From Candidatus Staskawiczbacteria bacterium (GTDB lineage Bacteria > Patescibacteriota > Minisyncoccia > Minisyncoccales > Staskawiczbacteraceae): DNA of 64,000 nt. The DNA lies in NCBI GenBank assembly GCA_903845295.1, contig CAIMWV010000027.1, positions 8,819-72,818 of the forward strand. The letters run 5' to 3'. The translations under genes were made by a program, and so were the position numbers. This document shows positions 5,427 to 63,021 of the stretch, in pieces. The notes beneath the pieces are model-generated. The model was not told the DNA's origin. It saw only the letters and a program-made list of their open reading frames with translations, and searched no databases. The first letter of the stretch is position 1; each line of letters opens with the position of its first letter.

Positions 5427-5441
5427 TTATTGTGCGACAAA
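5427..5441 (+). repeat. module-boundary motif TTATTGTGCGACAAA
   Basis: Starts 4 nt after prmC stop; 5425-5441 is 17/17 identical to 42196-42212; GC-rich pur island begins downstream. Confidence 0.8.
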
Positions 5442-5499: not shown

Positions 5500-5520
5500 G
5501 CACCTTTCCATGTGAATAGG
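5500..5520 (+). promoter_or_regulatory. 21-nt box GCACCTTTCCATGTGAATAGG upstream of purE-like gene
   Basis: 17/21 identical to 6082-6102 upstream of purC. Confidence 0.4.
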
Positions 5521-5563
5521 AACAGGTGATGAAGTAAAAACCTTGAACTAGGGAGGATTTGAA

Positions 5564-6076: not shown

Positions 6077-6080
6077 GGGT

Positions 6081-6105
6081 TGCACCTTTCACTGTGAAGG
6101 GTGCA
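6081..6105 (+). promoter_or_regulatory. RNA/DNA hairpin between purE and purC
   Basis: tgcacctttca / tgaagggtgca, 11-bp stem (one G-U) with a 3-nt loop; contains the TGAAGGGTGC box. Confidence 0.5.
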
Positions 6106-6148
6106 TTCCAGATGAGTCCGCAACCGGAAAAAAGGAGGGCGAAAGAAA

Positions 6149-7048: not shown

Positions 7049-7273
7049 GCGGCTCGGAAATTCTCGAATCTATGTCCTTATCACGTGCAAGCGGGGTGGG
7101 GACTTTTTGTTTGCAAAATTTAACATTTTTGTTAGTATCTATTTAGCATTGCTCTTTGAAAATCTCTGAAGGGATTTTAGAGCAACTGTTCAACCCGCGA
7201 GTTTTACGGGTGTGGGCGTCGCCTGGGGCGACATTCGACATTTTGAGGGGTCAAAAGCCCCGGGAGAGGGAAG

Positions 7274-20868: not shown

Positions 20869-20909
20869 AACACTTTAATTTTAGGTCATTTTATGATAAT
20901 ATTCAACCA

Positions 20910-25267: not shown

Positions 25268-26674
25268 ATGCAAAGATTTTTAATAAAAGACACTGCAAAA
25301 CACATCGGAGAAAAGGTCAGGGTTTGCGGATGGGTGAACACAAGAAGAGCCCATGGTAAAATCTTGTTTATTGACCTGCGGGATATCAGCGGAATCCTAC
25401 AGGTTGTTTTTGTGCCTTCGAATAAGGAGGTTTATGATATGGCCCAAACTTTGAGGGCGGAATGGGTTGTAGAAATTATCGGGCAAATTGTAAAAAGGCC
25501 GGAAAATATGGTCAACCCGAAAATTGAAACGGGTAAGGTGGAGCTTTCAGTGGAAAGCCTAAAAGTTTTATCAGAATCGGAAACCCTGCCACTATCCATT
25601 GAAGGAGACGGTTACGATATTGGCGAGGAAACGAGAATGAAATACAGATATTTAGATTTACGAAGAGAGCGGATGAAAAATAATCTTATTGTGCGACATA
25701 AAGTGATAAAATTTATCAGAGATTTTTTGGATAAAGAAGGTTTTGCTGAAATTGAAACGCCAATTTTAACTAAATCAACGCCAGAAGGAGCAAGGGATTA
25801 TATCGTGCCTTCGCGCCAAGAACCGGGTAAATTTTATGCTCTTCCGCAATCGCCGCAGCAATACAAACAATTATTAATGGTTGCAGGCCTGGAAAAATAT
25901 TTTCAGATGGCAAAATGTTTAAGAGATGAAGACCCGAGAGGGGACAGACAGCCGGAATTTACCCAACTCGATCTTGAAGCAAGTTTTGTAAGCCAGGAAG
26001 ATGTTATGGATTTAACAGAACGTCTTTTAATTTTAATCGTGCAGAATTTATTTCCGAATAAAAAAATACAGGAAATTCCGTTTCCGAGGATAAGTTATAA
26101 AGACGCGATGAAAAAGTATAATTCAGATAAGCCGGATATCAGGAAGGATAAAAACGACAAAAACCTTCTGGCATTTTGCTGGGTCATTGATTTTCCATTT
26201 TTTGAGAAAACAGAAGAGGGCGGATGGACTTTCACACACAACCCGTTTTCAGCTGCCAAACCGGAATTTGATGAAGATCTGTTGAACAAGAAAAATATAG
26301 AGAACATTTTAACCAGCCAATACGATGTTGCGCTAAACGGCTTTGAAATAGGCGGGGGGTCTATCCGAAACCACAGGCCCGAGGCTCTTGAAAAGGTTTT
26401 TGAAATAATGGGGTATAAAAAAGAGGTAATACATGAAAAATTCGGGCATATGATGGAGGCCTTTAAATATGGAGCTCCTCCTCACGGAGGGATTGCTTGG
26501 GGTATAGACAGGGTTTTTGCTTTATTATTTGAAGAGCCGAATATAAGGGAAGTTATGGCGTTTCCTAAAACCGGAGACGGCAGAGATCTTATGATGAAAG
26601 CACCTTCTGAGGTTGATAAAAAACAATTGAAGGAATTACATATAAGCATAACAAAAGAAAAAAAGAAAAAATAA
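25268..26674 (+). CDS. aspS: aspartate--tRNA ligase (short form without GAD insertion)
   Basis: FYALPQSPQQYKQLLMVAG and CLRDEDPRGDRQPEFTQLDLE class II motifs; 468 aa. Confidence 0.9.
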   Translation: MQRFLIKDTAKHIGEKVRVCGWVNTRRAHGKILFIDLRDISGILQVVFVPSNKEVYDMAQTLRAEWVVEIIGQIVKRPENMVNPKIETGKVELSVESLKVLSESETLPLSIEGDGYDIGEETRMKYRYLDLRRERMKNNLIVRHKVIKFIRDFLDKEGFAEIETPILTKSTPEGARDYIVPSRQEPGKFYALPQSPQQYKQLLMVAGLEKYFQMAKCLRDEDPRGDRQPEFTQLDLEASFVSQEDVMDLTERLLILIVQNLFPNKKIQEIPFPRISYKDAMKKYNSDKPDIRKDKNDKNLLAFCWVIDFPFFEKTEEGGWTFTHNPFSAAKPEFDEDLLNKKNIENILTSQYDVALNGFEIGGGSIRNHRPEALEKVFEIMGYKKEVIHEKFGHMMEAFKYGAPPHGGIAWGIDRVFALLFEEPNIREVMAFPKTGDGRDLMMKAPSEVDKKQLKELHISITKEKKKK

Positions 26675-33065: not shown

Positions 33066-33180
33066 TGTTTTATGTTATCAAGGTGCCCAGGATTTCAGCT
33101 TAATACAAGAATCTCTAAAAATCAAACAAAAAAAAGCCTGCCAATCTGACAGACCTGCTTTCTTATATATTCGAGGGATT

Positions 33181-33381
33181 CTAAATGTTTTCGGTTTCCG
33201 GCTGTCTGGACTTTTCCAGCTTGTCCAACAGCATAATTACCGCCAAAGCCAATACGGCTGTAAGGAATCCTGTCACGAATCCGAACACGAAGCCGAACTT
33301 GGATCCTGAAAGGACGCCTGTTATCAATCCTTGTAACAGGACGATAACCAGCATGTATTGAAAACCTATCGTTTTCGGCAT
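33181..33381 (-). CDS. small 2-TM membrane protein
   Basis: 66 aa, two hydrophobic helices, gggaggg SD upstream. Confidence 0.45.
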   Translation of the reverse strand: MPKTIGFQYMLVIVLLQGLITGVLSGSKFGFVFGFVTGFLTAVLALAVIMLLDKLEKSRQPETENI

Positions 33382-33562
33382 TATCTTCGCCCTCCCGTTT
33401 GGGTTGCCAATGTTCCACGTTTTTTAGTATATACTATTATTTTTAATATGTCAACTATTTGAGTTTCCTTTGAAATCGGTTATACTAAAGTATTCCGTAT
33501 AAAAAAACTGCCCGCCCTTCAAATGAGAAGAAGCGGGTCCTATCTTGGATCCCCGAAGGGAT

Positions 33563-33754
33563 TTACTTGCCCCGGCGCAATGCCAGGGACAGCCCCGCGA
33601 ACACCGTACCGGTGATGGCTATCCACACAATGTTAGTGTGGAGCGCGATCAGAAGCACGAGTCCTACGAGACTGACAACCCATAGGGCTGCCAGGATCCA
33701 GACGACCGCCGCCCAGACCCGAAGACCAAACATAAAAGCCTTTTCGATCGACAT
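33563..33754 (-). CDS. small 2-TM membrane protein (GC-rich)
   Basis: Start moved to M15 of the track ORF (ggaggtg SD 4 nt upstream). Confidence 0.45.
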   Translation of the reverse strand: MSIEKAFMFGLRVWAAVVWILAALWVVSLVGLVLLIALHTNIVWIAITGTVFAGLSLALRRGK

Positions 33755-33833
33755 GGTGCACCTCCACAGGGTTATTATTGGCGAAGAAAGAGCCAACTGC
33801 CAATGAATTGGCAGGCCAGGAACACAGTTGTTC

Positions 33834-37830: not shown

Positions 37831-38250
37831 ATGATAGAAGATAATCGTCCATCAATAGGCGTTGCTGTAATAGTTGTAAAAGACCAAAAAATTCTTATTG
37901 GAGAAGATAGGCGAAAGGGGAAAAACATCTTTGGCGTTCCCGGCGGACATTGGGAAAATAAAGAAACCCTTAAAGAATGCTCGGTTAGAGAAGTCAAAGA
38001 GGAAAGCGGAATAGTTTGCCAAAATCCACAATTAGTTTCGGTTTATGATTTTTTTCGAGAAGATAAAAGCAAAAATTATGTAAGCATCGGGATGAAAACA
38101 GACTATGTTTCAGGCAAGCCAAAAAATCTTGTCGAAGAGGGAAGATTAAATTGGGAATGGTATACTATAGAAGATGCGCTAAAATTGAACTTGTTCCCAG
38201 CCGACAGAATTTTAATCCAGCGATATTTATCCGGCGTGATTTACGAATGA
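37831..38250 (+). CDS. NUDIX hydrolase
   Basis: Nudix box GGHWENKETLKECSVREVKEESG. Confidence 0.8.
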   Translation: MIEDNRPSIGVAVIVVKDQKILIGEDRRKGKNIFGVPGGHWENKETLKECSVREVKEESGIVCQNPQLVSVYDFFREDKSKNYVSIGMKTDYVSGKPKNLVEEGRLNWEWYTIEDALKLNLFPADRILIQRYLSGVIYE

Positions 38251-40885: not shown

Positions 40886-40900
40886 TTATTATGCGACAAA
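40886..40900 (+). repeat. module-boundary motif variant TTATTATGCGACAAA
   Basis: Starts 3 nt after the gltX stop; overlaps candidate GNAT start codons. Confidence 0.65.
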
Positions 40901-41445
40901 TGACAATAAAGAAGTTTGGAAACAAAAAAATTATAATAAGAAAACTCACAAGAGAAGATCTGAAGATTGCTGACAAATTCAGAGATTTTACAAATTCCCT
41001 GGTTGCAGAGAATGCCAAAATAGCCATGAACGAGAAAATAGACCTGAAAGGCGAGCATAAATTTTTATCGGACACTCTTAATAGTGTTAAAAATAAGAAA
41101 AGAGTTTACCTTATAGCAGAATGCGACGAAAAAATAATAGGCACTGCCAGCATAACTCAGTTATCATGGAGAAGCAACCATGTAGGGGAGCTTGGTGGGA
41201 TAGCCGTTAAAGACGGCTATAGGAGATTAGGGCTTGGTAAATACATGATGGCGCAGATTATAGAGCTGGCTAAAAAAGAACTTCATCCAAAGCCTAAAAT
41301 GATAAGATTATTCGTCTATATAAATAATAAGCCGGCCATAAGGCTTTATAGAAAATTAGGTTTTAAAAAAGTGGCAAAGCTTCCAAAACACATACAATAT
41401 AAAGGAAAGTTAATTGACGAGTTTGCAATGATTTTGGAATTATAG
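40891..41445 (+). CDS. GNAT-family N-acetyltransferase
   Basis: GGIAVKDGYRRLGLGKYMM acetyl-CoA motif A; start ambiguous (40876, 40891 or 40900). Confidence 0.75.
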   Translation: MRQMTIKKFGNKKIIIRKLTREDLKIADKFRDFTNSLVAENAKIAMNEKIDLKGEHKFLSDTLNSVKNKKRVYLIAECDEKIIGTASITQLSWRSNHVGELGGIAVKDGYRRLGLGKYMMAQIIELAKKELHPKPKMIRLFVYINNKPAIRLYRKLGFKKVAKLPKHIQYKGKLIDEFAMILEL

Positions 41446-41447
41446 CT

Positions 41448-41462
41448 TCATTGTGCGACAAA
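41448..41462 (+). repeat. module-boundary motif TCATTGTGCGACAAA
   Basis: Starts 3 nt after the GNAT stop. Confidence 0.8.
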
Positions 41463-41510
41463 ACAGTGTGAAATGCGATATTTTACGCTGTTTTTTCGTC
41501 GGTGTTACTA

Positions 41511-41539
41511 TTGACAAACCATATTAAATGTGGTATAGT
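41511..41539 (+). promoter_or_regulatory. near-consensus sigma70 promoter of GC-rich module
   Basis: TTGACA-17 nt-TATAGT with TGg extended -10. Confidence 0.6.
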
Positions 41540-41630
41540 ATAGCTAGATAGTCAGGCTACGGGAATGGTTCCCGCATGCCGGTTGACAATCAAGTCGGGA
41601 AGTCAAGGAAGATGAGAAAGGAGTTGTCAC

Positions 41631-42122
41631 ATGAAATACCTTTGTTGGGCGATTGCGATCTGGCTGGGCCTGCTAGGAATGGTGGGCCTGGTGTTCGCGG
41701 AGGAGAAGGGCCAGACGGCGATCTGTATCGCGCCACTTGACCAGTACCTCATGCGGGCCGAGGACACGGTTGGCGAAGGCAACAGGGTGTTCATCCGCAC
41801 CTACGAGGTAACGGAAGATGGCGGCAAATACGCCATCCAAGTTGCCACGAGGGAGGGTTCGGTAACATCCTACATCAAGGCAGAGGCCTTCTGCGGCAAC
41901 TTGCGGGTGCTGGAACTCCATCTTCGGAAGTCTCCGGATGCCTACCAAGAGTGCAAGAAGGTTGGGGAATTGCTGAAACTGGCAAAGGCCTCAAACCTCA
42001 AGAAGGTCGTGGTATACAAGCGCGACAACAAAGGCGCTTGGCTAACGAAGGAATTCGTGGAGGACCCGACTGCTCCCCTTGGTGGTGACATCGAGAGGGA
42101 GGCACAAAAAGCCCTGCGATAG
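41631..42122 (+). CDS. secreted hypothetical protein (GC-rich module)
   Basis: Signal peptide MKYLCWAIAIWLGLLGMVGLVFA; aaaggag SD. Confidence 0.55.
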   Translation: MKYLCWAIAIWLGLLGMVGLVFAEEKGQTAICIAPLDQYLMRAEDTVGEGNRVFIRTYEVTEDGGKYAIQVATREGSVTSYIKAEAFCGNLRVLELHLRKSPDAYQECKKVGELLKLAKASNLKKVVVYKRDNKGAWLTKEFVEDPTAPLGGDIEREAQKALR

Positions 42123-42144
42123 CGGGGCAGGGGCGAAAGCTCAG

Positions 42145-42180
42145 AGGGCCACTAGAGTATAACTCGACGTGGCCCTTTGA
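42145..42180 (+). terminator. hairpin terminator of module
   Basis: agggccac-N16-gtggccct then ttt. Confidence 0.5.
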
Positions 42181-42197
42181 AATGCAATTTTATACTC

Positions 42198-42212
42198 TTA
42201 TTGTGCGACAAA
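42198..42212 (+). repeat. module-boundary motif TTATTGTGCGACAAA
   Basis: Identical to 5427-5441; closes the module opened at 41448. Confidence 0.8.
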
Positions 42213-42307
42213 TAGTGCCGGGAGTGCAGGGTTTGATACTTTAATTAGAGCTCTTTTTTTACGGAAAAAGAAATGGTAAAATACGACAATATGCAAAAAA
42301 TTTATTT

Positions 42308-42358
42308 ATGAATAAAAAGCTTATATTTTATACAGCCTTTTATATATTTTATATATGA
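42308..42358 (+). pseudogene. ghost 5' end of membrane-protein gene (MNKKLIFYT...)
   Basis: Homologous to the real start at 42419 (MNKKIIFYI), then runs into the CAGCCTTTTAT element. Confidence 0.55.
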
Positions 42359-42369
42359 AGGGTGCAAGC
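42333..42369 (+). repeat. CAGCCTTTTAT..ATGAAGGGTGCAAGC element, copy 2
   Basis: Aligns with 11344-11380. Confidence 0.7.
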
Positions 42370-42418
42370 AGTCTTCGTTTATTTATTATGACAGGGCGCG
42401 GAGCAAAATAAAATATTT

Positions 42419-42772
42419 ATGAACAAAAAGATAATTTTTTATATAGTTTTGATAATTGTTATATTGATTTTCGTATTTTTGAGCCAGCAGGTATATTCAA
42501 GGTGGGTGGGAAAAACCCTTATTTCCGGCATAACAAGCCGGGCATCGGCATACCTGGCAAAAGGGGCTAATTGGGCTATGTCCGACATATACCCGAAAGT
42601 AAACAATCAATTGAAAAGTGGGGGAGAGACAATGCAAAATAAAGCCGAACAAACAAAACAAAATATTTTTTCTGACGCCGCAAAAAATATTGGAAATTAT
42701 TTTTCCGGAATTGCAAATAGTATTCTCCATCCGGGAACTGCGCAAAGCTCCCAAACTTCAACCGGCCGATAA
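42419..42772 (+). CDS. membrane-anchored hypothetical protein
   Basis: N-terminal TM IIFYIVLIIVILIFVFL. Confidence 0.5.
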   Translation: MNKKIIFYIVLIIVILIFVFLSQQVYSRWVGKTLISGITSRASAYLAKGANWAMSDIYPKVNNQLKSGGETMQNKAEQTKQNIFSDAAKNIGNYFSGIANSILHPGTAQSSQTSTGR

Positions 42773-42854
42773 AGTTGTACTTTAGGTCGTCTTTTTAGGC
42801 CGCCTGTGGATTTTATGGGGTTGACATGGGCTTAGGGGACGGTTATTATCAATA

Positions 42855-42896
42855 TATAGACTATGTCGCAAAATGTAGGTAAAGCGACGTTCTATA
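42855..42896. promoter_or_regulatory. imperfect palindrome with two inverted half motifs upstream of recombinase gene
   Basis: TATAGActaTGTCGC-N14-GCGACgtTCTATA, 19 nt before ATG 42915. Confidence 0.45.
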
Positions 42897-42914
42897 AGGG
42901 CCCACTTCTAAAAC

Positions 42915-43889
42915 ATGGAAAAATCATCAAAGCCAATAAAAGAACATCTGCAAGACTTTTTAGATTATTGTGAAGTTGAAAAAGGTTTGCGCGACAATAC
43001 TCAAGAGAATTATAAAAATTATCTGCAGAAATTTTTTAATTGGTTAGATCAGGCCAAATTAAGCTCTCTGCTCCCCCATCAATTGACCTCAGACCACATT
43101 TGGGCCTATAGATTATACCTTTCCAGGACCCCAAGCCCGGCTACTGGCAAATTGCTGTCAAAAGGCACCCAGAACTACTATTTAATCGCTTTAAGGGCCT
43201 TTTTAGGCTATTTTGTGGCTAAAGACGTACTTTCACTGCCTCCGGACAAAATATCGCTCTCAAAGCCAGATAGAGGCTCAAAAAGCATAAAATTCCTTAG
43301 TTTAGACCAGATTGGCAAGCTTTTAGCCTCTATTGAGCCAAAAGACGATATAAGCACCCGCGACAGGGCCATTTTGGAGGCTTTTTTCTCAACCGGCCTT
43401 AGAATTGCCGAACTTGTATCCTTAAATCTTGAACAGTTTAATAGCTTAAAAGATAAAAAAGATATGGAGCTGGGCGTTATCGGCAAGGGCGGCAAACCTC
43501 GCGTGGTTTATTTTTCAGAACGAGCTTTAAACTATATCAGAAAATATCTTGAAATACGAAACGATGTTAAGCATGCCAATCAAAAAGCCCTATTTATAAA
43601 CTTTAGGGATAAAAAAGATGATGCAGATGCCAGGCTCACACCAAGATCTATTGAAAGAATGGTCAAAAAATATGCCCTGCTTTCAGGCGTTCCGATTTTT
43701 ACTACCCCACATACCTTACGCCACTCATATGCAACAGATTTATTAAACCAAGGAGTTGACCTGCGCAGCATCCAAGAATTTCTGGGACACAGTAACATTG
43801 CCACAACGCAAATTTATACGCACGTAACCAACAAACGTTTAAGGGATATACATCATCAGTTTCATAGTGACCCTGATAAAAATAATTAA
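42915..43889 (+). CDS. tyrosine site-specific recombinase (XerC/D-like)
   Basis: N-terminal SAM-like core-binding domain; STGLRIAEL (Arg I), HTLRHSYAT (H-x-x-R), LGHSNIATTQIYTHV (catalytic Tyr). Confidence 0.85.
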   Translation: MEKSSKPIKEHLQDFLDYCEVEKGLRDNTQENYKNYLQKFFNWLDQAKLSSLLPHQLTSDHIWAYRLYLSRTPSPATGKLLSKGTQNYYLIALRAFLGYFVAKDVLSLPPDKISLSKPDRGSKSIKFLSLDQIGKLLASIEPKDDISTRDRAILEAFFSTGLRIAELVSLNLEQFNSLKDKKDMELGVIGKGGKPRVVYFSERALNYIRKYLEIRNDVKHANQKALFINFRDKKDDADARLTPRSIERMVKKYALLSGVPIFTTPHTLRHSYATDLLNQGVDLRSIQEFLGHSNIATTQIYTHVTNKRLRDIHHQFHSDPDKNN

Positions 43890-43923
43890 CAATCCACCAT
43901 CCTGCCTGCATTGAGCGAAGCCG

Positions 43924-43940
43924 AATTGTCGCACAATAAA
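43924..43940 (-). repeat. module-boundary motif (reverse orientation: AATTGTCGCACAATAAA)
   Basis: 35 nt after the recombinase stop, 60 nt beyond the DapA-like stop; 43925-43941 is 17/17 identical to 61516-61532. Confidence 0.8.
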
Positions 43941-43944
43941 ACAG

Positions 43945-43989
43945 CCCCGCAATCGCTTGGCTTATTTAGCTTTGCGATTACGGGGTTTT
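43945..43989. terminator. bidirectional terminator
   Basis: 12-bp stem ccccgcaatcgc/gcgattacgggg (1 mismatch), T-run after and A-run before. Confidence 0.6.
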
Positions 43990-44000
43990 AGGGCTGTAAA

Positions 44001-45113
44001 CTAGGTGCCAGAGGCGTTTTCGTCGTAGATCGAGGGTGTCTGGTTCAATCTATCTTCGATATTGACTCCGAAGAACTCGGCGATGGGCTGGAAAATCTCG
44101 GGACTGTTTTTCTGAACTTCCCGAAGGCCCTCCAAGACCAGAAGAACGCCTTGCGCTGTCATTTTTCCCAGCGGCTCACGGCAGGGGCCGGACGGCATGC
44201 CCAAGATCCGCATCATAGTTTTGATGCCCACGGGGTTGCGGAACTTGTCTTTGACCTTGTAGATCTTTGTTTCAGCTCCATTTCCGGGAATGCTGACTTC
44301 GCGTTCGGCAGAAACAGTCACCAGCCTGAACAACGGCGCGAGTTTGGTATGCATCGCGGCCGCAGTTTCAGATTCTCTGTGCAGCAGGTGCTGGCACATC
44401 TTTTGCACCGCAGCCGGAGCGATGTTGGCGATCACCGAGATGACGCCGCAAGCTTGTATGCTGGTTTCGTTCATCATGTAGTAGGTCATGTCGTCATCGC
44501 CGGAAAAAATCTGGAAATCCGGCGGGGTTATACTGCGCGTCTCCCGGAATTTATCCATATTTCCGGTTGCCTGCTTCACGGCGCAGATATTGGGATAGCG
44601 CCGCGCCAAAACTCCAAGGTCCGCGCAAGAAAGCTCGCAGCCCGTGCGCCCCGGAATTATGTAAGGCACAATCGGCAAATTGGGATGCAGCGCGGCAATC
44701 GGCCCGTAGTAATGGCGGGCGATCTCAAAGGAAGACGGCCCGTTGTAGTAAGGATCAACCATCAACGCTCCGTCGCAACCAGAAGCCTCGGCCAAAGCAA
44801 CGTAGGATTTGGCTTCTTTGGTGGAATTGGACCCGCAGCCGGCCAGGATGCCCAACTTTTCCTGGCTGTTGGAGTTAATTTCATGGACCAGTCTGGCTGA
44901 CTCAACAATCACCAGGTGATGCCCGCGCTCATTCAGTGTCGAGGTTTCACCGGTTGTTCCCATGGGAACAATTCCGGACACATTGTTTGAAGCGAAGAAA
45001 CTGACCAGCCTGGCGATGCCGGGCCGGTCTATTTTCCCATCCTTCAAAAAAGGCGTTACCATGGCTACCCATGCGCCTGTGGCCAACCGTAACTTCTTTT
45101 CCTGCGTTTCCAT
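44001..45113 (-). CDS. DapA/NAL-family class I aldolase (dihydrodipicolinate synthase-like) with C-terminal extension (GC-rich module)
   Basis: GIVPMGTTGETSTL and ICAVKQATGN (Schiff-base Lys block); 370 aa versus about 290 typical; taggag SD. Confidence 0.75.
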   Translation of the reverse strand: METQEKKLRLATGAWVAMVTPFLKDGKIDRPGIARLVSFFASNNVSGIVPMGTTGETSTLNERGHHLVIVESARLVHEINSNSQEKLGILAGCGSNSTKEAKSYVALAEASGCDGALMVDPYYNGPSSFEIARHYYGPIAALHPNLPIVPYIIPGRTGCELSCADLGVLARRYPNICAVKQATGNMDKFRETRSITPPDFQIFSGDDDMTYYMMNETSIQACGVISVIANIAPAAVQKMCQHLLHRESETAAAMHTKLAPLFRLVTVSAEREVSIPGNGAETKIYKVKDKFRNPVGIKTMMRILGMPSGPCREPLGKMTAQGVLLVLEGLREVQKNSPEIFQPIAEFFGVNIEDRLNQTPSIYDENASGT

Positions 45114-45139
45114 GATGTGACTCCTAAAATGCGGTTGTA

Positions 45140-45168
45140 ATTAAAGGTACAGAATTTAGCAGTATCAA
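45140..45168 (-). promoter_or_regulatory. sigma70-like promoter of DapA-like module
   Basis: Minus strand reads TTGATA-17 nt-TTTAAT. Confidence 0.5.
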
Positions 45169-45223
45169 CTGCCAAACGAATTTATGTTAGCCCTATTTCC
45201 ATTTTTTGTAAATATATTATTAA

Positions 45224-45238
45224 AGTGTCGCATAATAA
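45224..45238 (-). repeat. module-boundary motif variant (AGTGTCGCATAATAA)
   Basis: 2 nt after the dinB stop (minus strand). Confidence 0.7.
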
Positions 45239-45240
45239 TG

Positions 45241-46329
45241 TCACTTTACCATTTTTTCTAATCTTACGCCGATAAGGCGTATTAATTTGCTTTTTGGATT
45301 ACTCCTTTTATCCAAAAACGGCAAAATGAGCTTCAAAATTTCTATTTCAAACTTCTTTTCGTTATTTATATCAATCCCCTCTTTAAAAGTCTTAGAACTG
45401 GTTTTTGTCTCAAAATCAGCGAAGCGGACTGTAATTGTTACAGTTTTAAATTTAGAAAATCCGCTTTCTATAAATCTTTTAAAAACATTGCCGGATAATT
45501 CCTTCATCTTATCGTAAATAAGTACGGCGTTTAGCGTATTTTGATTAAACGTAGTTTGCTCCCCGATAGATTTTATCTCATGATATTCAGTAATCGGGTC
45601 GTCATCAATTCCCCTGGCTTTGTAATATATCTTCTCTCCCTGCTTGCCCAACATTTCTTTCAGTTCTTCTATGGAAGGTTTATTTAAATCTTCAATGGTT
45701 CGGATGCCTTTTTGATAAAAAATTTCGGCGGTCTTAGGGCCTATCCCGGGAAGCTCTCTTATGTCCAGCGGATTCAAAAATCTTTGCACGTCCTTTTCCA
45801 TAACTGAAAGCATTCCGTTAGGTTTATTGATTCCTGCTGCAATCTTAGAGACAAGCTTATTGGGACCGATTCCTACAGAACAGGTTATCTTTTCTTTTTT
45901 ATAAATTTCTTCCTTTATTTTTCTGCAAATGGCTTCTGCTTTTTTAAACGTTCCGGAAAAACTTAAATCAAAATAAAATTCATCTATGCTTGCCTGTTCC
46001 ACATCATCTGAATACTTTTTAATGATGTAAAGAATATTATCAGAAGCCTTGTTATATAACTCAAAATCTACAGGCAGGAAGATAACTCCTTCCTTGCATT
46101 GCTTTTTGGCTTCTTCTGACAGGCGCCATGCAAATGAAATGGGCATGGCTGAATGAATGCCATACTCCCTTGCTTTATAGTTTGCGGTGGATACAACTCC
46201 CCTGCCGATGCCATTGATTATCTCAGAACCTACAACAATGGGTTTTCCCGAAAAGCCAGGCGTGGCAGCCTCTTCAACTGAGGCGAAGAAAGCATCCATG
46301 TCCAGGTGCGCAATTATTCTTTTATCCAT
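45241..46329 (-). CDS. dinB: DNA polymerase IV
   Basis: IIAHLDMDAFFASVEE, Y-family palm/finger pattern, HhH GIGPKT. Confidence 0.9.
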   Translation of the reverse strand: MDKRIIAHLDMDAFFASVEEAATPGFSGKPIVVGSEIINGIGRGVVSTANYKAREYGIHSAMPISFAWRLSEEAKKQCKEGVIFLPVDFELYNKASDNILYIIKKYSDDVEQASIDEFYFDLSFSGTFKKAEAICRKIKEEIYKKEKITCSVGIGPNKLVSKIAAGINKPNGMLSVMEKDVQRFLNPLDIRELPGIGPKTAEIFYQKGIRTIEDLNKPSIEELKEMLGKQGEKIYYKARGIDDDPITEYHEIKSIGEQTTFNQNTLNAVLIYDKMKELSGNVFKRFIESGFSKFKTVTITVRFADFETKTSSKTFKEGIDINNEKKFEIEILKLILPFLDKRSNPKSKLIRLIGVRLEKMVK

Positions 46330-46335
46330 GTTTAA

Positions 46336-46344
46336 ATTCTACCA
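46336..46344 (-). promoter_or_regulatory. extended -10 promoter (TGgTAGAAT), leaderless geometry for dinB
   Basis: The -10 ends 6 nt before the A of the ATG. Confidence 0.45.
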
Positions 46345-46371
46345 CAAAAATACGCTCTGTATTCCTTCTTA

Positions 46372-46388
46372 TGTTGTCGCATAATGAA
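46372..46388 (-). repeat. module-boundary motif variant (TGTTGTCGCATAATGAA)
   Basis: Between the dinB start region and the terminator of the YfiH-like module. Confidence 0.7.
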
Positions 46389-46402
46389 AATATGCCGAAA
46401 TA

Positions 46403-46431
46403 TAAAAAAAATCGCATGTGGTTAATGCGAT
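46403..46431 (-). terminator. intrinsic terminator of YfiH-like module
   Basis: atcgcat-N7-atgcgat stem; T-run on the minus strand. Confidence 0.55.
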
Positions 46432-46459
46432 ATAGGTTCGGCAGTTGCCAAACCCTGTC

Positions 46460-47212
46460 TTATAAACAAGCGAGTGCCAAAAATCTTCCTTCGTGCCCGC
46501 AATTTTCAGCCCGGCGGTGCGAAGGAAAGATATATTCTTCGGATCCGGGAAGCCTCGAACAGCATGTGCAGATTTTGTCATCTGCAAAAATATTGCCCTC
46601 GGCTAATCCATATTCCTGAAGCTGTTTCCGCGCTTCTTCGCGTAGGTCCAATTTGTCATAACAGCATGGTCCGATGCCCGGGCCTATTGCCGCCACAATT
46701 CGGCTGGTAGATATTCCATGCTGGAGCATGTGTACTGCCTCCACTCCAATATGGATTATCTCAATCTCCAGGCTTTTCTTACTGACGTGCAGAAGGCAAC
46801 AAAACTGATAGTTGGGATCTGCCGATCCTAAGATTACCGGCAAACAATCTGCCGGGCAGAGCGTCAGTGGAATATTGATCATGGTCGTCGCTAAGCCATC
46901 GCATTTAAACGTTCCTCCGCCGGCAACGATATCTGTGATGTTTTTCTCGGTGACAACCTTGATCATGTTACCCACCCCGGGAATCATGTGAACCCGGTTT
47001 TTAGCTGAAATCCCGACCAGCTCGAAAAAAGCGGCTACGTTTCTATCAGCCGCAGCCTCATCTCCCGCCTCTTTAGCCCATCTGCGAGACATGTTCCCAA
47101 ACTGCTCGCCAGCCAAAACGGTTGAAAAAACGTTGAAAACAGGAAATTCTGAAAAAGACATCACCTGCTGCCCATGGTCATATTCTGCAAACGCCAAAGA
47201 TTTACTCTGCAT
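46460..47212 (-). CDS. YfiH/PgeF (DUF152, laccase-domain) family protein (GC-rich module)
   Basis: LTLCPADCLPVIL, CLLHVSKKSL and IGPGIGPCCY match the ADC.P / H / GP.I..C.Y pattern of the family; aaggag SD. Confidence 0.7.
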   Translation of the reverse strand: MQSKSLAFAEYDHGQQVMSFSEFPVFNVFSTVLAGEQFGNMSRRWAKEAGDEAAADRNVAAFFELVGISAKNRVHMIPGVGNMIKVVTEKNITDIVAGGGTFKCDGLATTMINIPLTLCPADCLPVILGSADPNYQFCCLLHVSKKSLEIEIIHIGVEAVHMLQHGISTSRIVAAIGPGIGPCCYDKLDLREEARKQLQEYGLAEGNIFADDKICTCCSRLPGSEEYIFPSHRRAENCGHEGRFLALACL

Positions 47213-47279
47213 AAATGCGCACTCCTTATTGCTTGATGGAAGGAACTAAATTCAGCGAGTTCGCCCGCTAAACATATAT

Positions 47280-47307
47280 ATTATATATGTTTATTACCTT
47301 TTGTCAA
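47280..47307 (-). promoter_or_regulatory. consensus sigma70 promoter of YfiH-like module
   Basis: Minus strand reads TTGACA-16 nt-TATAAT. Confidence 0.6.
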
Positions 47308-47346
47308 CGCTTAGTGTCTGTTGATTTGTTAGGAGGTATAATTAAA

Positions 47347-47407
47347 CTGTCGCACAATGGGTCGCACAATCGACAACAGTGTTGACACACTATTGTCGCC
47401 TAATCAA
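47347..47407 (-). repeat. cluster of boundary-motif copies (tandem CTGTCGCACAAT GGGTCGCACAAT, palindrome CGACAACAGTG-ttgaca-CACTATTGTCG, variant TATTGTCGCCTAATCAA)
   Basis: Read directly; four motif-related units within 61 nt. Confidence 0.75.
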
Positions 47408-47473
47408 TATTAAGCAACATTTTTGCAAAAAAGCCGCTTAATATTAAGACGCTGGCAAGTTTTCAGGTTTATA

Positions 47474-47488
47474 CTTGTCGCACAATTA
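47474..47488 (-). repeat. module-boundary motif (CTTGTCGCACAATTA)
   Basis: Core TTGTCGCACAAT exact. Confidence 0.75.
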
Positions 47489-47503
47489 ATTATCTAGTAT
47501 AAT
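47475..47503 (+). promoter_or_regulatory. promoter for LAGLIDADG gene using motif as -35
   Basis: TTGTCG-17 nt-TATAAT. Confidence 0.5.
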
Positions 47504-47531
47504 AAAAATATACAAACTTAAATCAAAAAAT

Positions 47532-48026
47532 ATGGCGAAAGAAAATTTTAATATTGTGACTTTGGTAAACAATGACGGATGCTTTGATTTGCAATTCAGG
47601 AAAGACACGAGGCACGAAAGGACCAACTCCCCCACTTACTACAGATGGAAGGCGCAATTTATAGTTACTTCCCCGAAAGATAATGTTAAAATTTTAGAAA
47701 AAATTAAAAATGAGATGGGCTGCGGCGAAGTAACCGTTTCAAAAGACCAGGCAAGGTTCTCAGTACAGAAAATCGGCGATATTGCGGAAAATATCGTGCC
47801 GTTCTTCAGAAAAAATTCTCTGTCGGATAAAAAGAAAAAAGATTTTGAGCTTTGGGCAAAAGGAGTCGAAGTAATCCAGAGGAATAAAGGAAAATATTTG
47901 GCCAGCTGGAAAAAGAATGACATATGCACCCTCATAGAAATCCACAAGTCATCAGCAAAATACAAAACGCATCCAAGAACTCCTAAGTGGTTAGACCTAG
48001 CAAAATCATTATCGAGAACAGCATAG
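47532..48026 (+). CDS. free-standing single-motif LAGLIDADG homing endonuclease
   Basis: LVNNDGCF (LAGLIDADG-like), IVPFFRKNSLSDKKKKDFELWAKGVEVI typical of the family; 164 aa. Confidence 0.7.
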   Translation: MAKENFNIVTLVNNDGCFDLQFRKDTRHERTNSPTYYRWKAQFIVTSPKDNVKILEKIKNEMGCGEVTVSKDQARFSVQKIGDIAENIVPFFRKNSLSDKKKKDFELWAKGVEVIQRNKGKYLASWKKNDICTLIEIHKSSAKYKTHPRTPKWLDLAKSLSRTA

Positions 48027-48076
48027 TTCGGAGCTCGCCCCGCTCAAATAAAAAATGTATAAAACGGGGTAAGAAT

Positions 48077-48133
48077 CGCCCAAGAATACCAAAATGGTTA
48101 GAAATGGCTAAAGTACTATCAAAAACAAATTAG
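48077..48133 (+). pseudogene. remnant C-terminus of a second LAGLIDADG gene
   Basis: Translates RPRIPKWLEMAKVLSKTN*, versus HPRTPKWLDLAKSLSRTA* at the end of 47532..48026. Confidence 0.6.
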
Positions 48134-48142
48134 TATCAACGA

Positions 48143-48169
48143 AAAAGCGAGGAACACCCTCGCTTTTTT
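48143..48169. terminator. bidirectional terminator
   Basis: aaaaagcgagg-aacac-cctcgctttttt. Confidence 0.65.
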
Positions 48170-48182
48170 ATATTATTTATAA

Positions 48183-48197
48183 TTTCACACAATAGAG
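48183..48197 (-). repeat. degenerate boundary motif (TTTCACACAATAGAG)
   Basis: 9/11 match to TGTCGCACAAT; 6 nt after the uppS stop. Confidence 0.35.
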
Positions 48198-52808: not shown

Positions 52809-52837
52809 ATAATAACAAAATTATTTTTGTAAATCAA
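52809..52837 (-). promoter_or_regulatory. promoter for ctpA formed by end of element B
   Basis: Minus strand reads TTGATT-17 nt-TATTAT. Confidence 0.5.
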
Positions 52838-52938
52838 CCCTTCACCATTTCGTTAATATCGTTTATTGATTAAATATAAAAAGATCGTAAGCTTATACAT
52901 TCTTAAATAAAAATCCGACTTGTATGGTGAAGGGTCAA
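52834..52938 (-). repeat. ~105-bp inverted-repeat element, copy B
   Basis: Arms tcaacccttcaccat / atggtgaagggtcaa; the reverse complement aligns along its full length with 2547-2650. Confidence 0.75.
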
Positions 52939-53048: not shown

Positions 53049-54320
53049 TTAGCGTGTGCCTACCGCGAACTCAAGTTTGCCTTCACGGGTCCACTTGAAC
53101 CCAATAACCGTACTTCGTGGGCCGATTCTTTCTGAGCCCACAATCCAGTCATTCGACAGGTAATCCTGGTATTTCGTCGGAACCGGGGCAACTACGTTCT
53201 GCCCCAACCGAATGGCGGTAATCCCCGGGAAGGGTGTTCGTCTTCCTCCCGAAGATACTGCCAGTCCAGGCCCCACGGACAGGATTATTCTGTTCGGCAT
53301 AGGCGGGACCACTATGGTTCCCACGTCTAGCACCGTGACATTAATATTGAACGGCGGAAGACTGCCAACGTTGATGACAATCTTCCCGGCACCGGAGATT
53401 GCGAAGGTGCCGGAAAACGTTCCGAACCCTCCACTATCCGAGCCTGCAACCATCGGCATACTGCTACCGTCCGAAGCAACCATGGTTGCAGTCGGTGTCG
53501 CAGTCGCAGGGACATAGTCAAACGTCAGATTGAACGGCTGCCCCGCGATTACATACTGCGGGCACACAACATTTGTCACACCCGTTGTGACTGTTGCTGG
53601 CGTCGTCGCCGCCGGAACCAAGATATTAATGCTGGCCGGCACCGGCATACTTCCAATCGTGACCTCCACCGTGTGCCTATCTGCCGTAGTGAAGGTCGGA
53701 GTGACCGTGAAGTTGCCCTTGCCCGTTCCTGTACCAGTAGCAGTGACAGCAACCTTCACCGAAGGCGCCTTATCAACGCTAATGTTCACGTCCAGCCCGG
53801 CATCGGCCGTGTAGTCAAACGTTACGGGAATGGGCTGGCTCAGAGCTATCGCCCCGAGCGTCCAATTATCGACAGTCGGTAACTTCACCGCTGGCGACGA
53901 CGGAGCCGCAACCACTTGGAACGCAGCTTTGTCAATCGCTGCGCTTCCATCGGCTGGAACGACGTGAATATGGTACTGACCAGCGGCCGCCGGAGTCCAA
54001 CTAGTTCGACCGACCGAGTAGCCAGCATCATCCGGCTGATCGTTCTTAAAGCTAGCAACGGTTTTGCCATCTCCAAGAACTTGCGGTACGTTCGAGCTGT
54101 TCAACACCGACATACTGAAGTCGGCGTCAAAGCGGACCGCGATCACGAACTGTGCACCCACCATGGGCGTGTCGCTCGCGATCGGAGCAACCGTCATCAG
54201 GTCTACCGCCCTACTGGCCGCCGGCGGCGCCTCGAACTTGACTTCCACGTCCAACGCGAACGCGGGAGCCATTACGCTCGCCACAATGGCGAACGCGCAG
54301 ATGTAAAACAACTTTCTCAT
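53049..54320 (-). CDS. secreted protein with repeated Ig-like/beta-sandwich segments (GC-rich)
   Basis: Start moved to M26 (gaggagg SD); signal peptide MRKLFYICAFAIVASVMAPAFA; T/V/A-rich beta repeats. Confidence 0.55.
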   Translation of the reverse strand: MRKLFYICAFAIVASVMAPAFALDVEVKFEAPPAASRAVDLMTVAPIASDTPMVGAQFVIAVRFDADFSMSVLNSSNVPQVLGDGKTVASFKNDQPDDAGYSVGRTSWTPAAAGQYHIHVVPADGSAAIDKAAFQVVAAPSSPAVKLPTVDNWTLGAIALSQPIPVTFDYTADAGLDVNISVDKAPSVKVAVTATGTGTGKGNFTVTPTFTTADRHTVEVTIGSMPVPASINILVPAATTPATVTTGVTNVVCPQYVIAGQPFNLTFDYVPATATPTATMVASDGSSMPMVAGSDSGGFGTFSGTFAISGAGKIVINVGSLPPFNINVTVLDVGTIVVPPMPNRIILSVGPGLAVSSGGRRTPFPGITAIRLGQNVVAPVPTKYQDYLSNDWIVGSERIGPRSTVIGFKWTREGKLEFAVGTR

Positions 54321-54407
54321 GACATCCTCCTCTCGCAAATCCCAAGGGACTCGAAGCCCCCTTCTGTCCATCTCGGGGGGCTCACAATGGCCCACCTCAC
54401 TACCATA

Positions 54408-54436
54408 ATGATAGCATATTGAATTGAACTTGTCAA
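54408..54436 (-). promoter_or_regulatory. near-consensus promoter formed by end of element C
   Basis: Minus strand reads TTGACA-17 nt-TATCAT. Confidence 0.55.
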
Positions 54437-54538
54437 GCCTTCACCTTACCAAAAATACTTTTTTTAAATTAACATAAAAATCTTTAAACCTTGTATAATT
54501 TTCAGAGAAAAGATACAACTAGTACAATGAAGGCTCAA
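54433..54538 (-). repeat. ~105-bp inverted-repeat element, diverged copy C
   Basis: Arms tcaagccttcacctt / atgaaggctcaa; same length and architecture as copies A and B. Confidence 0.55.
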
Positions 54539-61410: not shown

Positions 61411-63021
61411 TTACTCAGTCAACAAATTAATTAATTCTGCCGGAACCCGGCCCTCCAGTAAAACTGTGTCGCCTGATTTGCAAAACAGCGTAATCATCGA
61501 GTAAATATCCTGAGGATTGTCGCACAATAAAATATTTTTGCCATCCATTCCGGCTTCTACGGCTCCTTGTTTCAACTCCTTAAACCTGTCTTTGCTTGTT
61601 ACTATAGCCAAGTCACAAACTTCTCCGATCTTTCTGCCGATTTTTTCATGGATTTCCGCTGATTTTTTACCCAATTCAATCAAACAAGGCATGACAATAA
61701 CCTTTTTATTTAGAAAAATCGAAAAATAATCCAAATCAGCAAAAACTCCGTCGGAATTCGCGGAATAAGAGGAATCTATAATATCAATGCCGTGCTTTCC
61801 GTGTTTTAAGGTCATTCCGGCCTGTTCCTCTGAAATATCCTTACAGCCCTCGGAAATTTCTCCAAAACTCATGCCCAATTCTTTTGCTATCAAAATAGCT
61901 CCTAAAAGATTCTGCACATTTTGCTTGCCCAAAACCTTTGCATCAAAATGCATTAATTCCCCGGTTTTATCAATCGCCAAAAATGAAATCCGGTCCCTTT
62001 GAACAGTAATGCCGTCTGACCAGATATCTAAATCTATTATCTTATTGCTTAAACCGTATATTTTTTTATTCCCGTCAAATTTTTTATACAGATTCAAACA
62101 ATATTTATTATCGCCATTCACAATCAAAATTCCATCTTTCGGCAATGCTCTGGCCAGTTCCCCGCCTCCCTCTGCTGAAAGCAGATTTTTTAATGAACCG
62201 AAAAGCGCCATATGCTGTTCGTTTACGCCCGTCACAATGCCGATTTTCGGCTTTAACATGGAGCAGACTTCTTCCACTTTTCCCTTATTATACGCGCCGA
62301 CTTCAGCAACAAAAATCTGGTAGCTGGGCTTTAAATCCTGCAGGATGCACTTAGCAATGCCGATTTCAGAATTCTGGTGCTCTTTTGTCTTTAGAACCTT
62401 GTATTTTTTGGAAAGTATCGTTGATAAAAATTCCTTGGTCGATGTTTTGCCGTAGCTTCCGGTAATGGCAATAACTTTAAGCCCGCTGACTGACTTTATC
62501 TTTTCCATTTTATTTCCGGCTTCCCTTAATGTGTTATTTCTCTGCAAAACAAAAAATGGCTGGAATAAAAGTACAATTGCAGAAATAATTATCGGGGTCA
62601 GAATATCAAATACCAAAAGCAACACCGGCTGGTATAAATCTTTGAATTTAGATGCCTGGACTAAAAATAGAATAACTACTGCAAAAGAGACAGCGGTCAA
62701 AAATAGCGCCTTGAGGGTTTTTCGCGGCTTTTTTACTGATCTGTTGAAAATCCCCTTTAAGAATAAAATTGATTCTGCCAGGTAAACCAGGAATAAAATG
62801 GAAAACAAATAAACAAACATCGGGCTTGCTATCAGGAATAAAATCAGCAAAGCCATTTTGACAAGCTGGATTAAGTTTAAAAATATTTTTTTGCCTTTAT
62901 GAGTCCTGAAATGGTCAGCAAACCTGCCCAGATGGTAATCCTTCAACTGCCACAAATAAAGCCAGAACAGGACATATTTTATCTCCCAAATAAGCCAAAT
63001 CGTGTTTAATAAAATAAACAT
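61411..63021 (-). CDS. murF: UDP-MurNAc-tripeptide--D-Ala-D-Ala ligase fused to an N-terminal polytopic membrane domain
   Basis: About 165 aa with about 5 hydrophobic helices, then IAITGSYGKTSTKEFL P-loop and the Mur ligase body. Confidence 0.8.
   Translation of the reverse strand: MFILLNTIWLIWEIKYVLFWLYLWQLKDYHLGRFADHFRTHKGKKIFLNLIQLVKMALLILFLIASPMFVYLFSILFLVYLAESILFLKGIFNRSVKKPRKTLKALFLTAVSFAVVILFLVQASKFKDLYQPVLLLVFDILTPIIISAIVLLFQPFFVLQRNNTLREAGNKMEKIKSVSGLKVIAITGSYGKTSTKEFLSTILSKKYKVLKTKEHQNSEIGIAKCILQDLKPSYQIFVAEVGAYNKGKVEEVCSMLKPKIGIVTGVNEQHMALFGSLKNLLSAEGGGELARALPKDGILIVNGDNKYCLNLYKKFDGNKKIYGLSNKIIDLDIWSDGITVQRDRISFLAIDKTGELMHFDAKVLGKQNVQNLLGAILIAKELGMSFGEISEGCKDISEEQAGMTLKHGKHGIDIIDSSYSANSDGVFADLDYFSIFLNKKVIVMPCLIELGKKSAEIHEKIGRKIGEVCDLAIVTSKDRFKELKQGAVEAGMDGKNILLCDNPQDIYSMITLFCKSGDTVLLEGRVPAELINLLTE
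61516..61532 (-). repeat. intragenic copy of boundary motif (ATTGTCGCACAATAAAA)
   Basis: 17/17 identical to 43925-43941; encodes ILLCDN near the murF 3' end. Confidence 0.7.

Follow-up and report, generated by a model that had tools for sequence, protein, structure and literature searches.

What kind of site is a short, oriented DNA motif that recurs on both sides of a Xer-family recombinase gene and lies at the borders of genes that differ from one relative to the next? The question is raised by a 64,000-nt stretch of contig CAIMWV010000027.1 (assembly GCA_903845295.1, Candidatus Staskawiczbacteria bacterium), called the window here, whose organism is placed in Candidatus Staskawiczbacteria, within the Candidate Phyla Radiation (CPR)/Patescibacteria, by the names on its database homologues. 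We compared the window with about 95 non-redundant related loci that were gathered around homologues of the recombinase gene, xer; these carry L-numbers below and were read as 10-kb flanks. A preliminary description of the window had proposed that a 15-nt motif is an insertion site at which single-gene modules are captured. We find that the motif is polar about a dif-like site, that the intervals holding it occur in empty and occupied states, that its copy number scales with the inserted DNA, and that several borders of non-homology lie at the motif. The explanation that we tentatively favor, with confidence just short of even, is that the motif is a Xer-type site with a single arm, at which modules bearing promoters are acquired, lost, or swapped.

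A polar motif around xer and a dif-like site

The cumulative GC skew of the window climbs to a maximum at about 43 kb and declines beyond it, and the gene strand switches convergently, the + strand carrying the genes as far as 43.9 kb and the − strand most of those beyond. From the skew maximum and the strand switch at 43–44 kb, we conclude that the window spans the replication terminus. The following features, which form a conserved core, lie in this region.

42419..42772, + strand: 117-aa membrane protein (p117), no family match; in the conserved p117-dif-xer core; cluster in 66 loci
42821..42849, + strand: xer promoter, TTGACA-17-TATTAT, conserved in relatives
42863..42890, no strand assigned: dif-like site, an 11-6-11 imperfect palindrome (left arm ATGTCGCAAAA, center TGTAGG, right arm TAAAGCGACGT) between the xer promoter and the start codon
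42915..43889, + strand: Xer-family tyrosine recombinase of 324 aa (Pfam Phage_integrase plus a SAM-like N-terminal domain), a core gene

The xer product is the only tyrosine recombinase of the window. Its best NCBIfam models are XerD, XerC, and XerA, all under their cut-offs, its closest PDB chains are the Pyrococcus XerC-like recombinase 4a8e, XerD 1a0p, and XerA 5hxy, and it is 82–98% identical across the best 120 database homologues, whose named sources are mostly Staskawiczbacteria. Comparison with Pfam, NCBIfam, and PDB thus places the enzyme in the Xer family, as the preliminary description had supposed, and the palindrome that it had noticed before the gene is also real, with an arm that resembles the motif. 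The palindrome lies 25 nt 5′ of the xer start codon and occupies the same place in most related loci that cover the xer leader, where its left arm and center are invariant and its right arm varies. In the divergent relative L030, it consists of GGTTCGCATAA, TTATAG, and TTAAGCGCACC, which we take to be close to the canonical XerC arm of dif. A Xer-family gene therefore stands beside a dif-like site, and the dif-like site stands at the terminus, where the GC-skew maximum and the strand switch coincide with the xer/dif region (43–44 kb). The genes xerS and xerH likewise adjoin their dif sites, and from sequence and position the palindrome is taken as the probable dif site, at which chromosome dimers would be resolved, of a single-recombinase Xer system of the XerS/XerH/XerA type. 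In every locus examined, dif and xer are contiguous, intact, and unoccupied. The p117 gene is always found just upstream of dif and xer (66 loci).

The motif has the consensus TTTT-ATT[G/A]TGCGACA and occurs about 30-fold above chance in the window. With up to two mismatches, TTATTGTGCGACAAA has 8 matches in the window against 0.33 expected, a number that 0 of 100 shuffles reached, and the 12-nt motif core with up to one mismatch has 11 matches against 0.36 expected. Ten of the 14 good copies lie within 40.9–47.5 kb, that is, in the 7 kb around the xer gene, and the 4 copies in the remaining ~57 kb all have the polarity of their replichore. The copies are listed here together with what adjoins them, including the behavior of homology in the relatives L033 and L158.

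5427..5441, + strand: distant exact copy, 3 nt past the prmC stop, adjoining a GC-rich island
25686..25700, + strand: distant, intragenic, with the polarity expected for the left replichore
40886..40900, + strand: 2 nt past the gltX stop, the outer border of the left array
41448..41462, + strand: 2 nt past the GNAT stop
42198..42212, + strand: L158 homology picks up at its first base or a few bases from it
43925..43939, − strand: nearest to xer on the right; L033 and L158 homology stops right after TTGTCGCACAATAAAA
45224..45238, − strand: 2 nt past the dinB stop; L033 homology picks up inside the copy
46372..46386, − strand: between dinB and the Cu-oxidase_4 gene
47347..47404, − strand: three-copy cluster, with 47347 and 47359 in tandem, 12 nt apart, and a variant at 47393
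47474..47488, − strand: its TTGTCG is the −35 box of the LAGLIDADG promoter (47475–47503); kept in relatives
48183..48197, − strand: degenerate copy adjoining the uppS stop; L033 and L034 have a good copy here plus a PgpA module absent from the window
56851, − strand: copy with 1 mismatch
61516..61530, − strand: distant, in murF, oriented as expected on the right replichore

All copies named in the preliminary description, including the degenerate one at 48183, were recovered in a looser scan; its list lacked the good copy at 25686 (+) and the one-mismatch copy at 56851 (−). The distances to stop codons that it reported hold as well, being 2–5 nt after prmC, gltX, GNAT, dinB, and uppS and 61–75 nt after three GC-rich open reading frames (ORFs).

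The polarity of the motif was counted in the related loci with the exact pattern ATT[GA]TGCGACA, which was also used for its density. Left of xer there are 104 copies on the + strand and none on the − strand, and right of xer there are 184 on the − strand and 9 on the + strand. Density is 0.9–1.5 per kb within 1 kb of xer and 0.04–0.18 per kb at 4–10 kb, and the chance density is estimated at about 0.001 per kb. About 5% of the copies are inverted, several of them directly beside xer; on the right, where they are few, most come after xer and LAGLIDADG, which are + strand genes. The gltX gene lies upstream of xer on the same strand in all 65 loci that carry it, and genes found on both sides of xer (c17, GNAT) are on the + strand to its left and on the − strand to its right, so that gene orientation is tied to motif polarity. 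The preliminary description had tied the polarity of each copy to the gene upstream of it. This does not hold, because polarity tracks the side of dif on which a copy lies, and in loci with no inserted genes, described below, copies on the − strand stand between two + strand genes.

The motif also resembles part of the dif-like site. Its 11-mer TTGTGCGACAA differs from the dif arm TTTTGCGACAT at only 2 of the 11 bases, and the 6 listed L030 copies with a fitting motif context all have TTATGCGA, 8 bases that also stand in the dif arm of that locus. On both sides of dif, the arm of the motif faces dif and its T/A-rich part points away. In a logo of 96 intergenic copies, information is confined to TTTT-ATTGTGCGACA(a). 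Because of the match to the dif arm, the identity in L030, and the orientation of the arm toward dif, the motif looks like half of a Xer site, with one arm plus a T-tract or the start of a T/A-rich center.

Variable modules and the borders between them

The related loci have a conserved frame, murD-ftsW-murG-gltX … p117-dif-xer … LAGLIDADG-uppS-L27-pyrG. Between gltX and uppS the genomes are hypervariable though otherwise syntenic among Staskawiczbacteria, and the gltX–p117 interval is variable too. The right array is closed by the following gene.

47532..48026, + strand: single-domain LAGLIDADG protein (Pfam LAGLIDADG_1, I-OnuI-like); cluster in 45 loci

Of the 45 loci holding both xer and the LAGLIDADG gene, 13 are in an empty state, with exactly two copies of the motif within 67–174 nt. 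Both copies are on the − strand though they lie between xer (+) and LAGLIDADG (+), and the second copy supplies the −35 box of the LAGLIDADG promoter. When the interval is occupied, it holds unrelated genes in each species, for example a kinase with LemA and TPM, or an ABC transporter; another holds Mrr, RNase H, a methylase, UvrD-OLD, and Fic, and the window holds DHDPS, DinB, and a PgeF-like protein. Copy number climbs with the length of the insert (Spearman 0.75, p = 2e-9, 45 loci), and the fit corresponds to about 2 + 0.6 copies per transcription unit. The presence of modules in some relatives and their absence from others, which the preliminary description had anticipated, is thus found both as an empty state and as gene groups that vary between copies. 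The copies separate these variable groups, and their number scales with the inserted DNA.

An array of this kind at 11000–20200 in L006/L007 carries Mrr, a Zn-ribbon protein, RNase H, an N6/N4 methylase, an OLD-TOPRIM ATPase with a UvrD helicase (Gabija-like), and Fic, and there the motif copies divide functional units.

In the window, the modules are the following.

40902..41445, + strand: GNAT acetyltransferase module, 34% GC; absent from L035 and L002, and on either side of xer in relatives
41511..42122, + strand: module of a 163-aa secreted protein of no known family; promoter 41511–41539, ORF 41631–42122, 57% GC
44001..45113, − strand: DapA-like DHDPS module, 54% GC; three unrelated genes instead in L033 and L158
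45241..46329, − strand: DinB (Pol IV) module, 37% GC; the sole module in L035 and missing from most relatives
46460..47307, − strand: PgeF/Cu-oxidase_4 module, 48% GC; perfect consensus promoter 47307–47280, terminator 46431–46411

Family searches agree with the gene identities given in the preliminary description and yield gltX, GNAT, Xer, the DapA-like DHDPS, DinB, PgeF/Cu-oxidase_4, the single-domain LAGLIDADG protein, and UppS. Its assignment of GNAT and dinB to the resident genes has to be given up, since both are variable modules that are absent or located elsewhere in relatives. It had further described the GC-rich modules as promoter-bearing, and this stands for the 163-aa ORF, with a promoter score of 11/12, and for the Cu-oxidase_4 gene (12/12), but the DHDPS promoter is weak (9/12). 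No recombinase domain was found in the four modules of the window that were scanned, nor in the Pfam lists of the arrays of three relatives.

The same arrangement of the array was found on 7 contigs in the index, and the four that were displayed come from four different samples. An assembly chimera as the origin of the GC-rich ORFs was ruled out on the grounds that the arrangement occurs on independent contigs and that the DHDPS and Cu-oxidase_4 modules are common to relatives about 10% divergent. We conclude that the array is not an assembly artefact, because it recurs on independent contigs from several samples.

Comparison with close relatives locates the borders of several of these modules. 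Against L033 and L158, whose Xer is 98% identical to that of the window, homology of 86–91% stops at 43941, right after TTGTCGCACAATAAAA, and restarts at 45232, inside the next copy. Between these two borders, the window has 1.3 kb, whereas L033 and L158 have 3.9 kb with three unrelated genes, and the distal copy of the relatives is degenerate. The cassette of the 163-aa protein keeps its promoter, leader, and signal peptide in L158 while the rest is unrelated, and homology is back at or near the start of the motif at 42198. Two independent insertions between LAGLIDADG and uppS, one of PgpA (L033/L034) and one of 1.5 kb (L219), both stop at a motif beside uppS, and compared with L033, the window has an insertion of a ~50-nt hairpin directly after the copy at 47393. 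In a census of breakpoints, 8 of 42 unique ones were no more than 5 nt from a motif, compared with 5% of random intergenic positions.

Two of these comparisons contain further details. When the gene of the 163-aa protein is set against L158 8590–9267, promoter and leader are near-identical, the signal peptide is 57% identical over 30 aa, and the mature parts are unrelated, so that either the secreted protein is diversifying or part of the gene has been swapped. L033 (5083–11121) and L034 (2632–8670) differ by 6 mismatches in about 4.9 kb from the intergenic region of dinB and the Cu-oxidase_4 gene rightwards, while dinB and xer are about 10% divergent and the stretch between these two is non-homologous. 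This pattern is the footprint of a recent recombination tract between strains.

What kind of site the motif may be

If the motif is a one-arm Xer-type site, as we favor, Xer would act on the conserved arm together with a second monomer bound non-specifically, and strand exchange would take place at the border of the arm and the center. Small non-autonomous modules, each of one gene or one operon and often with its own promoter and terminator, would be inserted, excised, or swapped between motif copies. In the ancestral state, a single copy would have stood left of dif and a pair in the interval from xer to the LAGLIDADG gene, and the arrays would grow outward from this state, since each event would usually leave the module with a motif copy at either end. 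That Xer is the enzyme, by what chemistry it would act, and in which form the DNA would arrive, we infer only. A wider claim can be built on the same evidence, in which the region is a chromosomal gene-capture platform on a housekeeping Xer/dif system, with mirror-image arrays of one-arm sites whose modules, including defense systems and foreign GC-rich genes, would be moved by single-arm, possibly single-strand-exchange, recombination. The sites would double as polar terminus signals, and the platform would add to integrons and dif modules a third cassette system of independent origin, in organisms whose genomes are minimal. This wider claim is possible, and on balance we would sooner doubt it than adopt it.

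The gene-capture reading of the preliminary description stands, then, as regards the hypervariable interval, the empty state, the borders, and a Xer enzyme. It does not stand in full as regards the site, which has one arm only and no attC-like structure, nor as regards the acting protein, for which Xer is a candidate.

A number of results weigh against module exchange at a one-arm Xer site, and they are gathered here. The first group concerns the site itself. In the logo of 96 intergenic copies and 40 nt on either side of the core, there was no second recombinase arm, no attC-like symmetry, and no fixed spacing, and no partner arm was found in reconstructed circle junctions, in which the distal arm of a module was set against the proximal flank. 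Because it has no second arm, fixed spacing, or inverted symmetry, the motif is not a canonical tyrosine-recombinase core site, and its central regions vary from copy to copy. The second group concerns insertions and their borders. Insertions in L160, L010, and L002 added no copies, and only about 0.6 copies accompany each transcription unit. About 80% of the breakpoints in the wider neighborhood lie away from a motif, and there is a motif at neither border of the NUDIX indel at 37831–38250. The other GC-rich islands of the window are not bordered by the motif except for the copy at 5427. The claim that the motif marks module borders thus stands for several borders of non-homology, which lie at or inside it, and fails for other islands and indels that have no motif. 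The step from 10% divergence to identity between L033 and L034 occurs near the motif between dinB and the Cu-oxidase_4 gene (46372 in the window), within about 50 nt, but the last mismatch lies 42 nt before the motif, so that the end of the recombination tract is not at the motif. The switch is therefore ambiguous, as a last mismatch 42 nt short fits homologous recombination ending nearby and not a cut at the motif.

The third group concerns the source of the modules. No donor of the GC-rich DHDPS gene was identified among its database homologues, because beyond the exact match and the L034 module (89% identical) the next hits are at most 54% identical and come from mixed taxa. No excised circle was found, nor any phage or plasmid bearing the motif; in a scan of viral contigs with TTATTGTGCGACAA, there were at least 120 matching stretches, and those listed were single matches with no clusters.

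The fourth group concerns copies inside core genes. Exact copies occur at conserved positions in core genes of the left replichore (gltX, murD), always on the + strand. In gltX of L004, L014, L021, and L026, a copy lies 238 nt before the stop codon, in 16 nt, CTTTTATTGTGCGACA, that are identical in the four species while the surrounding sequence is different. The peptide encoded there is (A/G)LLLCD(K/R) in these four species but SLxFSEK in others, and 3 of the 4 species have no copy between gltX and p117. Because an insertion site inside an essential gene makes no sense, another function is under selection. Conserved intragenic copies with strict polarity and amino-acid changes make the motif more than an insertion scar or an att site. 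That it serves in addition a polar, housekeeping purpose at the terminus is almost certain. Finally, Xer has a competitor as the protein that acts on the motif, in that the LAGLIDADG protein is an equally placed candidate binder because a motif copy forms the −35 box of its promoter.

These last results lead to the first alternative, in which the motif is a polar terminus signal, either a fork trap (Ter-like) or a guide for a translocase, like the FtsK orienting polar sequences (KOPS), bound by a LAGLIDADG-derived protein or by Xer, while modules merely accumulate around it. This alternative, which may coexist with the module exchange that we favor, we consider rather unlikely as the explanation. 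It would account for the near-absolute polarity by side of dif and not by gene strand, for the fall in density with distance from dif, and for the distant window copies at 5427, 25686, and 61516, whose polarity matches the replichore in each case. The conserved copies inside core genes, which were gained at an amino-acid cost and compensate for a missing intergenic copy, also speak for it. In Tus/Ter and RTP/Ter, the terminator gene (tus, rtp) lies beside a site in its own promoter, as in tus/TerB and rtp/TerI, and the LAGLIDADG gene resembles this setup, as a highly conserved gene of a DNA-binding fold beside the array with a motif in its own promoter. A family search with the LAGLIDADG protein gave 685 homologues, the best 120 of which are at least 75% identical, with few named sources, all Staskawiczbacteria or Patescibacteria. 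Its catalytic Asp is kept in most orthologues and is replaced in 2 of 19, by V in L023 and Y in L032, which suggests that nuclease activity is dispensable. Because of this replacement, the protein may bind DNA rather than cut it, and the free-standing LAGLIDADG protein may be a domesticated DNA-binding factor rather than a nuclease.

A terminus signal leaves unexplained, however, why copy number rises with the number of inserted units, why a copy stands beside each unrelated module with borders of non-homology at or inside the motif, and why 9 of 11 bases agree between the motif and the dif arm. The motif is skewed toward dif within 10–40 kb, but at 11–15 nt it is far longer than known KOPS, which are about 8 nt and point to dif along whole replichores. 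The inverted copies, about 5% and several of them beside xer, would harm a fork trap. The comparison with Tus/Ter and RTP/Ter goes only part of the way. Both have polar sites that fall into two opposed groups about dif, with some sites intragenic, and a gene for a binder, here a putative one, with a site in its promoter. Unlike those traps, the present sites resemble a dif arm, multiply with modules, and mark borders of non-homology, and no Tus or RTP homologue or domain was present among the 20 proteins scanned, the adjacent candidate being the LAGLIDADG protein.

A second alternative gives the LAGLIDADG protein the active part, as an enzyme that cuts or nicks the motif so that repair of the break captures foreign DNA or drives gene conversion between the arrays. 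The gene belongs to the core and borders the array in 45 loci, a motif copy is its own −35 box, the catalytic Asp is retained in most orthologues, and the motif is almost unchanged in L030 despite a Xer of 58% identity and a drifted dif. Single-domain LAGLIDADG enzymes act as homodimers on pseudo-palindromes of 18–22 bp with a 4-nt center, whereas the motif is a strongly asymmetric 11–15-mer with an odd, 3-nt center. Repair of a break would not duplicate a 14-nt site on both sides of an insert, L023 has a full array without the catalytic residue, and the motif resembles a dif arm, L030 having the TTATG variant of its own dif. We therefore regard a LAGLIDADG target as improbable.

The last alternative, a gene-end element, a regulatory one (a terminator companion or an operator box), or a DNA-uptake element, is very improbable: many copies do lie 2–18 nt past stop codons co-oriented with the gene, most of the few inverted copies on the right follow xer and LAGLIDADG, and one copy overlaps a −35 box, but most gene ends and promoters outside the terminus zone have no motif, no U-tract or stable hairpin accompanies it, the empty-state copies oppose the two genes that flank them, intragenic copies are conserved at the DNA level, and uptake sequences are far denser and occur in both orientations, unlike the 4 copies in ~57 kb outside the terminus cluster, all polar (about 1 per 6–25 kb away from dif).

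Returning to the one-arm Xer-type site, we compared it with known systems of mobile modules. In the way it works, the array comes closest to the dif modules of Acinetobacter, to integrative mobile elements exploiting Xer (IMEX), and to integrons, and it fails defining features of each. In the literature on CPR Xer or cassette systems, we found no description of such arrays.

The pdif sites of Acinetobacter are full 28-bp sites with XerC and XerD arms, in alternating orientation, mostly plasmid-borne, in a host with two recombinases. The dif modules are pdif-flanked and on plasmids, recently also on chromosomes; like the modules here, they are small, carry one or a few accessory genes, and are bounded by dif-related sites, and they have no recombinase of their own, are shuffled among replicons, and presumably rely on the host Xer (PMC6449649, PMC12907356). 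The arrays here differ in having a one-arm site (the 96-copy logo) with a negative circle-junction test, and copies that on the same side are direct repeats (104:0 left, 184:9 right) and not alternating. They are also chromosomal and mirror-symmetric around dif, beside a single xer gene.

IMEX (CTXphi, TLCphi, the gonococcal island, Legionella LME-1) carry no integrase and use the host Xer at the terminus, some with a defective second arm, and tandem arrays are possible. The location at the terminus, the one-arm sites, and the arrays are shared with them, as the use of Xer may be. Unlike the present modules, IMEX are of phage or island size and enter dif itself; here dif is unoccupied, and insertions lie at separate half-sites, at distances of ~30 nt to >7 kb from xer. 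That the copies are scars of IMEX entering dif in series was considered and ruled out, as such scars would have, on each side, the arm-center orientation opposite to the one seen, and dif is never occupied.

Integrons share with the window a recombinase beside cassettes that are mostly of a single gene, one short conserved core per junction, variable content, and an array orientation that is fixed relative to replication. Unlike an integron integrase, the window's Xer has no IntI signature, scoring 105 bits against a cut-off of 265 for TIGR02249, over the C-terminal residues 241–309 only, and 59 against 435 for PRK15417. There is no folded inverted repeat like attC but a linear 15-mer, with nothing conserved 40 nt to either side, and the cassettes have internal near-consensus promoters (41511–41539, 47307–47280), whereas those of integrons are promoterless and depend on a shared Pc promoter. 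Here there are also two mirror arrays, and the recombinase is a housekeeping Xer beside dif.

The sfx sites of shufflons offer a precedent for asymmetry, since their core and one arm are conserved while the other arm is variable, and a second Rci monomer has been proposed to bind non-specifically (PMC11852207); the present sites resemble them in being asymmetric with one conserved arm plus a core (PMC11852207). Shufflons, however, invert segments between inverted sites within one gene, whereas here gene content varies. Shufflon-like inversion between left and right copies as a frequent event was ruled out by the constant orientation of xer relative to gltX, LAGLIDADG, and uppS in every locus.

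Neighboring features and meaning for the clade

Several other features of the window and its relatives were recorded. Between ftsW and murG, the NUDIX gene at 37831–38250 forms a clean indel of 0.45 kb when compared with L158, with flanks about 96% identical. Further islands of 47–57% GC in this 37–40% GC genome lie at 129–4138, 5471–8932, 31455–33806, and 53049–54395, and they include purC and purB-like genes and large ORFs without a family match. In L176, a homologue of DHDPS lies between c12 and c13, so this interval may be another hotspot. Three AT-rich elements of ~100 nt (2549–2648, 52836–52936, 54435–54535) have 13–14-nt terminal inverted repeats, (A/G)CCCTTCACCAT…ATGGTGAAGGG; the GC-rich ORF at 53049–54395 (57% GC) has one of them on each side, and the third lies between two GC-rich ORFs. 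They may be a second type of junction or MITE-like (miniature inverted-repeat transposable element) sequences linked to foreign-looking genes. In L004/L005, a large serine recombinase (Resolvase, Recombinase, Zn_ribbon_recom) at 20429–20972, just past the L9 gene, may mark another mobile element near the terminus. An Rfam scan of the window gave one tRNA and nothing else.

The genomes of CPR/Patescibacteria are tiny and streamlined, the organisms are believed to rely on hosts, and how they gain and turn over accessory genes is poorly understood. If module exchange at the motif is true, a hotspot beside xer/dif would be a concrete and testable mechanism of gene flux in a large uncultured radiation, with a recognizable 15-nt junction motif, an empty state, and modules that include defense systems. 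It would also extend Xer-dependent mobility from phage-sized IMEX and the plasmid modules of Acinetobacter to chromosomal, single-gene cassettes with one-arm sites. With its strict-polarity selection inside core genes, the motif may reveal how termination or chromosome segregation is organized, and it is a simple marker for the terminus and for the flexible gene pool in metagenome-assembled genomes of the clade.

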